The translations under genes and the position numbers were made by a program. A stretch of DNA of 64,000 nt, from IMG/VR virus record IMGVR_UViG_3300032334_002267, positions 73,310 to 137,309 of that record; one strand, 5' to 3'. This DNA comes from a virus (Duplodnaviria; Heunggongvirae; Uroviricota; Caudoviricetes). Shown here one piece after another: positions 61,993 to 62,975 of the stretch (position 1 is its first letter; each line of letters starts with the position of its first letter). A model generated the notes under the pieces. That model saw only the letters and a program-made list of their open reading frames with translations, was not told the origin of the DNA and ran no database searches.

Positions 61993-62403
61993 ATGAAGAT
62001 AGATAAGGCATACATAAAGCACATGAGCACACCATCACATAAAGACAAAGTGGCATTAAAGGCAAACCTACTGCCACACGCACATCACATAGGAGCACCA
62101 CAGATCAAACCCACAGATCTCACACCATTTATCAGAGCAGCCTCACACAAGGTGAACAAAGCCCTACAGAGAAGAGCCCAGGAGATCATCCTTCAGATAG
62201 AGGAGCTGCAGCAGGAGTACGAGCTCAACCAGGAGGTCTACTCGGCCAAGTGCTCCTTTGAGCCCATAGTGGGAGAGTGCTACCATCTGTACCAGAGCGA
62301 GGATGGCTCAAGGTTTATGAGTCTCATCTCACCCTCCCAGTGGAGCAAGCCACACCTGTACTCCGTGATCCTGAATGCGGACTACACCTGGAGCAAGGTC
62401 TAG
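61993..62403 (+). CDS. hypothetical protein (GC-rich island)
   Basis: 136-aa ORF; upstream CCCGCCCACC..CCAAT..ATATA boxes. Confidence 0.45.
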   Translation: MKIDKAYIKHMSTPSHKDKVALKANLLPHAHHIGAPQIKPTDLTPFIRAASHKVNKALQRRAQEIILQIEELQQEYELNQEVYSAKCSFEPIVGECYHLYQSEDGSRFMSLISPSQWSKPHLYSVILNADYTWSKV

Positions 62404-62670
62404 GCCCACCCAGGGTCCACCCTTACCCCCGTCCCCCAAACATAGTATGTTACTAAGGTAGTATGCCACAGGTTCCCCCGGCCAAGACTTAGAGGTCCCG
62501 GGGGATAGCCTCCACAGGTTCGCGTTTTAGAGGCCCTTATGGAAGCCCCTCTGTGGGCATGAGCTTCCACCCAGGGTGAAAATCCCTGATTTCTCGGATT
62601 CCCCGATTCGGGCCACCGCCTCGGTCCGGGCTTCTCCCCCAAGATCCCTCTGGGGTACCAGATCCCACGG

Positions 62671-62720
62671 TTCCCATGAAATCCCACAAATTCCCACAAA
62701 TTTCCAGAAATTCCCCCAGA
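62671..62720. repeat. tandem decamer array TCCCAnAAAT x5
   Basis: tcccatgaaa tcccacaaat tcccacaaat ttccagaaat tcccccagat; flanked by GGATTCCCCGATTCG direct repeats (about 62596 and 62726). Confidence 0.7.
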
Positions 62721-62975
62721 TACCCCGGGATTCCCGATTCGCCCCGATCTGGTCTCGGAACCGTGGGTGGCTTTCGCCCCGTTCAGAGCCTCTTAGATCC
62801 GCCAGCAGTCCCGCCTCGCCTCGCTCTACTCTCTTCTCTATGATCTCTATGCCTATGCTTCTCTTCCTCTCTAGCTATAAGAGACAGAACAGTATGGGTA
62901 TCATCTATTTGGTGGGCGGGTCCTCCTGGGAGATCCACCCCGAAACCTCCCCCTCTGGGATTCGATATATAGAGC

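Follow-up and report, generated by a model that had tools for sequence, protein, structure and literature searches.

We analysed a 64,000-nucleotide (nt) stretch of DNA from a virus of the class Caudoviricetes (IMG/VR record IMGVR_UViG_3300032334_002267, positions 73,310 to 137,309; hereafter the window, whose first letter is position 1) and found that it contains a conserved non-coding gap of 572 nt at 62404–62975, with a reused gene-upstream module at either end and, between them, a platform made up of palindromes and five phased repeats. The pieces of this gap persist in three lineages, the window's own included, while the neighbouring proteins have diverged to 27–59% identity. The gap is most likely a docking site on DNA for regulatory proteins and not an RNA gene, and we put at about even the chance that it is a control region, acting as DNA, that heads a rightward cluster of small genes. 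The element matches no family described so far; by type, it is a phage control region rich in repeats.

The window is a piece of the genome of an uncultured huge phage, because homologues of a RecA/DnaB-like ATPase encoded 8 kb downstream of the gap sit on IMG/VR contigs of 290–373 kb (55–79% protein identity) and the closest record in public phage collections is an uncultured 484-kb phage (35% identity). The mean GC content of the window is ~36%, and it carries phage-type genes (RNA ligases, a PIF1/RecD-like helicase, a MoxR-type ATPase, a tyrosinase) together with intrinsic terminators. Metagenome contigs of ~106 kb from several samples match it at 99.9–100% identity over 60.5–64 kb. We compared the window with four independent assemblies of its own phage population (L001–L004); with partial loci found through homologues of the 179-amino-acid (aa) protein encoded to the right of the gap, which are close relatives at ~94% DNA identity (L005–L008) or stand at 75% (L009); with a second lineage on one 348-kb IMG/VR contig, where the whole syntenic region is covered (L011/L023); and with a third lineage on contigs of up to 37 kb, found through homologues of the DUF2452-family protein encoded to the left (L024–L029).

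The gap runs from the stop codon of the DUF2452 gene to the ATG of a 39-aa membrane-protein gene and is the second-largest non-coding gap in the window, a tRNA region being larger. A first-pass annotation, made from the letters alone, had described here a GC-rich, apparently non-coding segment of about 550 nt, and this description is borne out; the GC content that it gave as about 58% is 56.6% over 62404–62975, and every feature that it listed lies at the position it was given or within 1–2 nt of it. Its view of the segment as a GC island holds in that the gap is the GC peak; however, high GC spans ~8.5 kb of this phage (43–56%) and includes coding genes, which themselves have 43–53%. In the other two lineages, the island is narrowed to the gap and the neighbouring genes, at 49–53% as compared to 38–43% for the fetched locus. 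A strand bias of C over G is strong in the window and weak in L023.

The gap encodes no protein. The open reading frames (ORFs) that cross it had been taken for artefacts of composition, and we found that no frame is kept between lineages, that the longest open frame in the homologous region of L023 has 71 codons, and that Pfam and PHROGs searches with all ORFs within the gap returned no match. The contrary view, that one of the listed ORFs or a small gene makes the gap protein-coding, could draw on the long open frames in the window and on a plus-strand ORF of 65–74 codons that is common to L023, L024 and L025. That shared ORF is, however, frameshifted in L027 and stopped in the window, and its ratio of synonymous to non-synonymous changes (4:4, as compared to 3:3 in an off-frame) shows no synonymous excess; we rejected it as a gene. 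The ORF at 62576–63109 is ruled out because it overlaps, in a different frame, the conserved 39-aa gene at 62976–63095, which the pattern of change marks as real: relative to L009, substitutions fall mainly at third codon positions and the hydrophobic peptide is retained. We regard a protein-coding gap as scarcely credible.

The first-pass annotation had left conservation in related genomes to be checked. We found that the region is conserved in all three lineages, which favours a function, and that the homologous gap measures 572–773 nt (572 in the window and 598–773 in the other two). The order of parts is common to the three lineages: an outward-facing arm (arm A), the DUF2452 gene, a CATAGTATG-N4-TAAsATACT motif, a core CCCCTCTAGAGGGCTGAGCTTCCACCCAGGGTGG, GATTTCY repeats, five 10-bp repeats, a CGCCTCGCCTC block, a pyrimidine-rich spacer, a second arm (arm B) and GATATATA(G/A), with the start codon a few nt further on. 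Across the same lineages, the DUF2452 proteins share 54–59% aa identity, and the third codon positions of their genes are 47–54% identical. The right-hand neighbour has diverged further; the 179-aa protein is 27% identical to its counterparts in L024 and L023, and other homologues match it at 60–89% identity.

A scan of IMG/VR with the core returned L023 only and one with a 26-mer from arm B returned no match; the arm B pattern had no copy in GTDB genomes, the segment had no match among the public phages in INPHARED, and a scan of JGI metagenomes gave nothing beyond a contig already recovered. In more distant huge-phage relatives (L012), there is no such gap and the genes are tightly packed, and the other DUF2452 genes that we examined have neither the gap nor the arms. 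A search of the literature found nothing bearing on the element.

The phased array and the central palindromes

The five 10-bp repeats, each of the form sTGG(G) followed by an A/T tract, occupy 62671–62720 on the minus strand and are in exact helical phase. The first-pass annotation had reported a five-fold decamer array here, and Tandem Repeats Finder recovers it at 62671–62715 (period 10, 4.5 copies, 80% matches). Five TGG at exact 10-nt spacing are present in every lineage (read on the minus strand in the window), and nowhere else in the 64 kb do four phased TGG follow one another, as compared to an expectation of 0.01 for such a run. The 10-bp phasing of A/T tracts at the array is the second strongest in the 64 kb (top 0.04% of scan windows), a rank reached although no part of the window is richer in GC than the surroundings of the array. 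The array is predicted to be intrinsically curved; a wedge model with the parameters of the CURVATURE program puts the bend at 59 degrees per 42 bp, at the 99.5th percentile.

The array stands one way round in the window, L007 and L008 and the opposite way in L006, L023 and L024–L027, while the blocks that flank it keep their orientation in all lineages. By this comparison, the array site is a recombination hot spot, because the array cassette of L006 is inverted and diverged although its flanks are ~94% identical to those of the window. A perfect inverted repeat of 11 nt lies around the array (left arm CCCACGGTTCC at 62664–62674, right arm GGAACCGTGGG at 62757–62767). We considered a simple inversion between these arms and rejected it, since the block to the right of the array keeps its orientation and its side everywhere; the repeat takes in more than the flipped part, and it is conserved neither in L023 (right arm) nor in L006.

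The invertible promoter switches fimS and hin and those of Bacteroides are similar to this locus in that a short segment is found in both orientations in close relatives and, in the window, is bracketed by a perfect inverted repeat. In contrast to those switches, the flipped segment here (~48 bp) does not coincide with the inverted-repeat boundaries, the repeats are not conserved, and all four assemblies of this phage population (L001–L004) have the array in the same orientation as the window. No recombinase turned up nearby, in a window that was not systematically surveyed for recombinases. The two orientations differ in sequence, which argues for an evolutionary rearrangement rather than a flip-flop. 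We treat as a long shot the idea that the array is a true orientation switch, a binding cassette flipped or swapped by recombination that resets rightward early-type genes across the huge-phage clade, or that the gap is the first definable replication or control hub of that clade; either way, the 33-nt core described below would be the recognition site of a phage regulator.

This ultraconserved core lies at 62546–62578 and reads CCCCTCT(GTGGGCA)TGAGCTTCCACCCAGGGTG, with a CACCCAGGGTG palindrome and a decayed CCCTCTAGAGGG palindrome. Its GAGCTTCCACCCAGGGTG stretch is identical across the three lineages, while the third codon positions of the neighbouring gene are as diverged as stated above. 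In L023 and L024, the palindromes of the core are CCCTCTAGAGGG and CCACCCAGGGTGG, with a loop of 0–4 nt. Motifs of the CCCTCTGGGG type occur four times, in arm A, in the core, in the stretch before the array and in arm B, and they shift in concert between lineages (CCCTTTAGGG or CCCTTAGAGG in L023). To the right of the core, GATTTCT, GATTCCCC and GATTCGGG repeats follow one another at 8–9 nt spacing (62588–62612, plus strand), with GATTTCY equivalents in L023 and L024. They form the left copy of a direct repeat that brackets the array, and GGATTCCCGATTCGCCCCGATCTGG at 62728–62750 on the plus strand belongs to the right copy. These bracketing repeats, which the first-pass annotation had also pointed out, are 74% identical between 62584–62610 and 62715–62741 and contain GGATTCCCCGATTCG and GGATTCCCGATTCG. 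Further right, the CGCCTCGCCTC block (62812–62822, plus strand) is invariant in the three lineages, and the pyrimidine-rich spacer (62820–62878, plus strand, 80% C+T) has kept its character and not its sequence.

Two other features near the left end of the gap had been noted and are present. The inverted repeat CCCCCGG...CCGGGGG is found at 62475–62505; this hairpin or palindrome is particular to the window's lineage and is missing from L007, which is ~94% identical elsewhere, and from L023. The duplicated CCACAGGTTC has its two copies at 62466 and 62512. A tRNA-like reading of CCCGCCCACCA beside GGGATCGAATCCC was tried and dropped, as the two are wrongly spaced and searches for tRNA and tmRNA returned no match. 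In L024–L027, the gap holds variable-number repeats, namely a 58-nt unit in 2–4 copies and a variable GGTGGA run. The 58-nt unit contains CCTATAGATAGAG and is present twice in L024 (5385–5460) and four times in L025 (3921–4100); the copy number of the GGTGGA run (5985–6010 in L024) differs among L024, L025 and L027.

Among described systems, we liken the gap to arrays bound by ribbon-helix-helix proteins. ParR-parC (R1, pSK41), the Omega heptads (pSM19035) and the MetJ metboxes also consist of 4–10 short repeats (7–11 bp) at one-turn spacing that can stand in direct or inverted orientation, as here, and, near promoters, they have the double role of operator and of scaffold on which a bent nucleoprotein filament forms. 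The gap differs from them in that no ParR-, Omega- or MetJ-like gene was found nearby and in that a single cluster of five repeats lies 250–330 bp from the promoter element, not over it. Short phased repeat arrays with intrinsic bends are also typical of packaging sites (pac of P1 and SPP1) and of partition sites (parC of R1 and pSK41), so that the five 10-bp repeats and their curvature would fit a pac or centromere-like site at which a small terminase subunit or a ParR/TubR-like protein binds. However, the flanking genes that were scanned include none for a terminase, ParM/ParR or TubZ/TubR, there is one five-repeat cluster only, and the contig ends elsewhere, with the region ~23 kb inside a 106-kb contig. 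We consider a packaging or partition site very unlikely.

The first-pass annotation had offered, as a fallback, either an iteron-type replication origin or a regulatory protein-binding array. The second version is closer to the evidence, given the phased repeats, the loop-less palindromes and the reused promoter-type modules, whereas the origin version fails, in the tests made, on the absence of an AT-rich unwinding element, of DnaA boxes and of an independent skew switch. Under the origin model, the five phased repeats and the palindromes would be the binding sites of an initiator that bends the DNA and opens the duplex nearby, with the flanking promoters providing transcriptional activation. 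A long, repeat-rich and conserved non-coding region is rare in the window, its direct repeats are phased and predicted to be curved, it lies near a switch in gene orientation and a local minimum of cumulative GC skew, and relatives show variable-number repeats and cassette-like swapping, as at other phage origins. Lambda ori, P1 oriR and P4 ori/crr are likewise non-coding, with helically phased direct repeats and an intrinsic bend; they likewise adjoin promoters, and mosaic variation between relatives is concentrated in them.

However, the lowest GC content over 40 nt in the gap is 35%, which is near the genome median (37.5%) and well above the 5th percentile (22.5%), and a patch of 25% GC beside the array is found in L023 only. 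There is no DnaA box (TTWTNCACA, at most one mismatch) in the window's gap or in the array of any lineage, and a reading of the array itself as DnaA boxes was rejected for want of boxes. The repeat unit has 10 bp, as compared to the usual 17–22 bp of iteron origins (that of P4 has 8 bp), the region is GC-rich and not AT-rich, and no flanking gene has an initiator-type family match that would identify an adjacent initiator. The skew follows gene direction and is already positive over an upstream plus-strand gene of L023; since it tracks transcription, it provides no evidence for an origin. The region is also absent from the more distant relatives represented by L012. We consider an origin possible and, on balance, unlikely.

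Modules reused upstream of genes

Arm B, at the right-hand end of the gap (62870–62975, plus strand), contains CTATAAGAGACAGAAC...ATCTATTTGG, a GGTGGGCGGG box at 62911–62920 and a GATATATAG motif at 62964–62972, three nt ahead of the ATG at 62976. It is near-invariant in L009 despite diverged adjacent coding DNA, and it is conserved in L023 and L024 too, with most of it invariant. Judged by where its parts recur, arm B is a promoter-type module that this phage reuses before other genes. The GATATATAG motif has 12 copies in the window, where 0.85 are expected (27691, 40337, 61383 and 62964 on the plus strand; 12998, 44516, 47964, 55958, 56883, 58201, 59405 and 61311 on the minus strand), and nine of them lie 3–6 nt before an ORF-opening ATG. 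It may be a phage-specific promoter for near-leaderless mRNAs or, instead, a translation-start signal.

The GGTGGGCGGG box has exactly four copies in the window (59433, 61364 and 61923 on the minus strand and 62911 on the plus strand), all within 59.4–62.9 kb, as compared to an expectation of 0.55. Three of the four are 19–45 nt upstream of GATATATAG in the orientation of the gene and are preceded by a TATCAT-type sequence; the fourth is the one in arm A. Where modules with the box stand before other genes of this phage, GATATATAG is 3–4 nt ahead of the start codon. A divergent spacer of 87 nt (61308–61394) holds one GGTGGGCGGG box and two outward-facing GATATATAG motifs. The combination of GGTGGGCGGG and GATATATAG is confined to genes of the GC-rich zone, and the box may mark a distinct regulatory class of genes.

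Arm A (61885–61965, minus strand), upstream of the DUF2452 gene, is an inverted, decayed copy of the same promoter-type module, with its GGTGGGCGGG box at 61923–61932. The two arms form a 60-nt inverted repeat (61891–61950 and 62893–62952) that is 73% complementary and has an exact core of 16 nt. In the window, arm A has lost its outward GATATATAG and the gene that belongs to it, apparently by a deletion between two ATTTTG repeats. In L023, arm A ends in GATATATAG and a 57-aa fragment of a repeat-protein gene, and in L039 it leads into a full outward gene of 393 aa. L023 has a third copy of the arm 6.7 kb away.

An inverted repeat of this kind could also bound a mobile cassette of ~1.08 kb (61885–62965) that carries the DUF2452 gene and the gap between terminal inverted repeats of 60–110 nt; the exact 16-nt core fits such ends, and the arms are longer in L023. 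However, the arms are a promoter module that is also found upstream of unrelated genes, and for a third time in L023, and each arm points outward to a gene start. The locus is the same in three lineages and only the arms recur, never the whole unit; there is no transposase, and other DUF2452 genes have neither arms nor gap. Because the module is reused, we read the 60-nt inverted repeat as two promoter-type modules and not as a transposon, and we hold a mobile cassette to be highly improbable.

At the left-hand end of the gap, CATAGTATG-N4-TAAGGTAGT (62438–62463, plus strand) is a copy, partly decayed in its second half, of the palindromic motif CATAsTATG-N4-TAAsATACT, of which a canonical copy lies at 63640–63663. 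The first-pass annotation had noticed that ATAGTATGTTAYTAAGRTA recurs, and we found it at 62442 and 63642, where 0.15 copies are expected. The full motif has many copies in L011, L012, L016, L017 and L023, located after terminators and 50–110 nt before start codons (L011 at 1029, 1263, 12242, 15910 and 19943; L012 at 12351, 15462 and 19334; L017 at 12190, 15916 and 20576). By these positions, the first conserved motif of the gap belongs to a family that stands, in relatives, between terminators and the next gene. There, the motif is followed by a GC-rich stretch, then by TTTATTTTTTTATC, and then by a TAnnTTTG-like element before the genes. This order hints at a promoter of a Bacteroidota-type host, but we set aside a Bacteroidota host inferred from TAnnTTTG promoters as anecdotal; TAnnTTTG follows CATAsTATG in relatives and is not enriched in the window.

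Action at the DNA or RNA level

As a protein-docking site, the gap could work as follows. The array would present five copies of the sTGG plus A/T-tract motif on one face of a curved helix, and a small sequence-specific DNA-binding protein, probably encoded by the phage, would coat them cooperatively, with dimeric proteins on the palindromes. The bent complex of DNA and protein formed in this way would set the activity of the adjacent promoter module, possibly also that of its inverted partner upstream of the DUF2452 gene, and would thereby time the expression of the rightward cluster. It could, in addition, contribute to the start of replication, although origin-specific hallmarks are missing. 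What the comparison shows is the anatomy of the gap, its conservation, its lack of coding and how its motifs recur and are oriented; protein binding, promoter activity and the regulatory outcome we infer.

Several points weigh against this proposal. The promoter label of GATATATAG, of the GGTGGGCGGG box and of the CATAsTATG motif reflects position and recurrence only. No binding protein was identified; the flanking proteins gave no informative family, PDB sequence or fold match. The array lies ~250–330 bp upstream of GATATATAG, which is far for a simple bacterial operator, and the independent lineages compared number only three. In addition, the plus strand of the gap folds somewhat better than its shuffles, with a minimum-free-energy (MFE) z-score of –1.7 (100 shuffles) and scores of –2.4, –2.3 and –3.2 in the three lineages (40 dinucleotide shuffles each), so that part of the conservation could act in RNA.

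The first-pass annotation had in fact led with the idea that the GC island marks a structured non-coding RNA. Such a plus-strand RNA, a long leader of the downstream operon or a stand-alone transcript, would be transcribed rightward from near the CATAGTATG motif, and its structure would account for the GC content. The weaker z-scores of the minus strand (–0.4, +1.1 and –1.0 in the three lineages) agree with this, as do a GC content above background in all lineages (49–57% as compared to 38–43%) and the promoter-like motif at the 5' end. A candidate long-range helix (62795–62801 with 62926–62932, and 62809–62814 with 62913–62918) appears in the MFE structure of each lineage and joins the surroundings of CGCCTCGCCTC to the region of the GGTGGGCGGG box, with two double changes between the window and L023. 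However, the paired segments of this helix are direct repeats whose frame is palindromic, and a protein site that changes in concert would account for it just as well. In the window, the 5' motif is a decayed copy, and the bias of C over G is weak in L023.

The remaining tests did not support the RNA idea. The Rfam scan that the first-pass annotation had proposed gave no match at the gathering score and, at E≤10, chance-level hits only, none of which places the gap in an RNA family. The RNAalifold covariation term is +1.3, which is no net support (from three lineages only, and so of low power). The CCCCCGG...CCGGGGG hairpin is not conserved, and the array is inverted in close relatives, which a fixed fold would not tolerate. 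GOLLD, ROOL and HEARO RNAs (Rfam) are also carried by phages, span several hundred non-coding nt and exceed the genome in GC content; in contrast to them, the gap has no covariance-model match at E≤10 and no covariation, and its key elements are inverted or absent in relatives. Taken together, the flipped array, the loop-less palindromes, the lack of an Rfam match and the lack of net covariation argue against a structured RNA, which we judge to be quite unlikely, and favour a platform of protein-binding DNA.

To our knowledge, almost no cis-acting elements have been mapped in huge phages known only from metagenomes. Read as a DNA control region, the locus offers conserved DNA signals to which work on the gene-expression programme of huge phages can be anchored: the 33-nt core, the five-repeat array, the GGTGGGCGGG box, the start-codon-proximal GATATATAG motif and the CATAsTATG palindrome, all of which could serve as baits for the proteins that read them. 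Proof that it is an origin or a switch would make it the first element of its type to be defined in this clade; for now, it is a well-documented, regulatory-looking region of an ordinary kind.

Neighbouring genes and other features of the window

The left-hand neighbour of the gap is the DUF2452-family gene (62023–62403, plus strand; PF10504, E=1e-13); its ORF opens at 61993, and relatives start at the ATG at 62023. The structure model of its protein has a predicted local distance difference test (pLDDT) score of 75, and a PDB fold search with it gave no significant match. To the right, the 39-aa membrane-protein gene (plus strand) is the first downstream gene in this lineage and is absent from L023 and L024. 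The conserved gene on this side encodes the 179-aa acidic protein (63106–63645, plus strand), whose structure model, with a pLDDT of 36, is unusable.

Further to the left, an intrinsic terminator (61807–61826, plus strand), with an 8-bp stem followed by TTTTTTG, lies after the gene for a pterin-4a-carbinolamine dehydratase. By-eye comparison of ~70 nt (61803–61874) with L023 showed one indel and one substitution. The matching stretch is at 2780–2850 of L023 (minus strand), and the terminator and the next 50 nt are near-identical while the upstream genes are unrelated (the pterin dehydratase in the window and a 569-aa protein in L023). This near-identity points either to a joint left by recent recombination or to a further conserved signal. 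The dehydratase gene (61395–61787, plus strand) shares this one huge phage with a tyrosinase gene (53329–54804, minus strand), and a tyrosinase is also found in the L024 lineage; the two may be auxiliary metabolic genes.

Three tandem paralogues at 55970–59400 on the minus strand have GAPxxVGGxFxCxxNxLTSL repeats with a weak leucine-rich-repeat (LRR) match and share an N-terminus of the MKxxxxF type and the C-terminus DPDGATSDLxDLGF. Beside arm A, L039 has an intact fourth copy, of which L023 keeps a truncated form and which the window has lost by deletion.

Elsewhere in the window, Rfam finds three tRNA-like genes of 93–107 nt, an unusual length (6187–6279, 6711–6817 and 49946–50047 (minus strand)). 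ARAGORN calls only one of the three, with an odd 'atc' anticodon labelled Asp; these long genes may contain introns or may be aberrant tRNAs. Two differing RNA ligase genes are present at 13079–14218 and 22094–23188, one Rnl1-like and one with a PHA02142 OB-fold domain, and a GMP reductase/IMPDH-like gene lies at 17921–18970.

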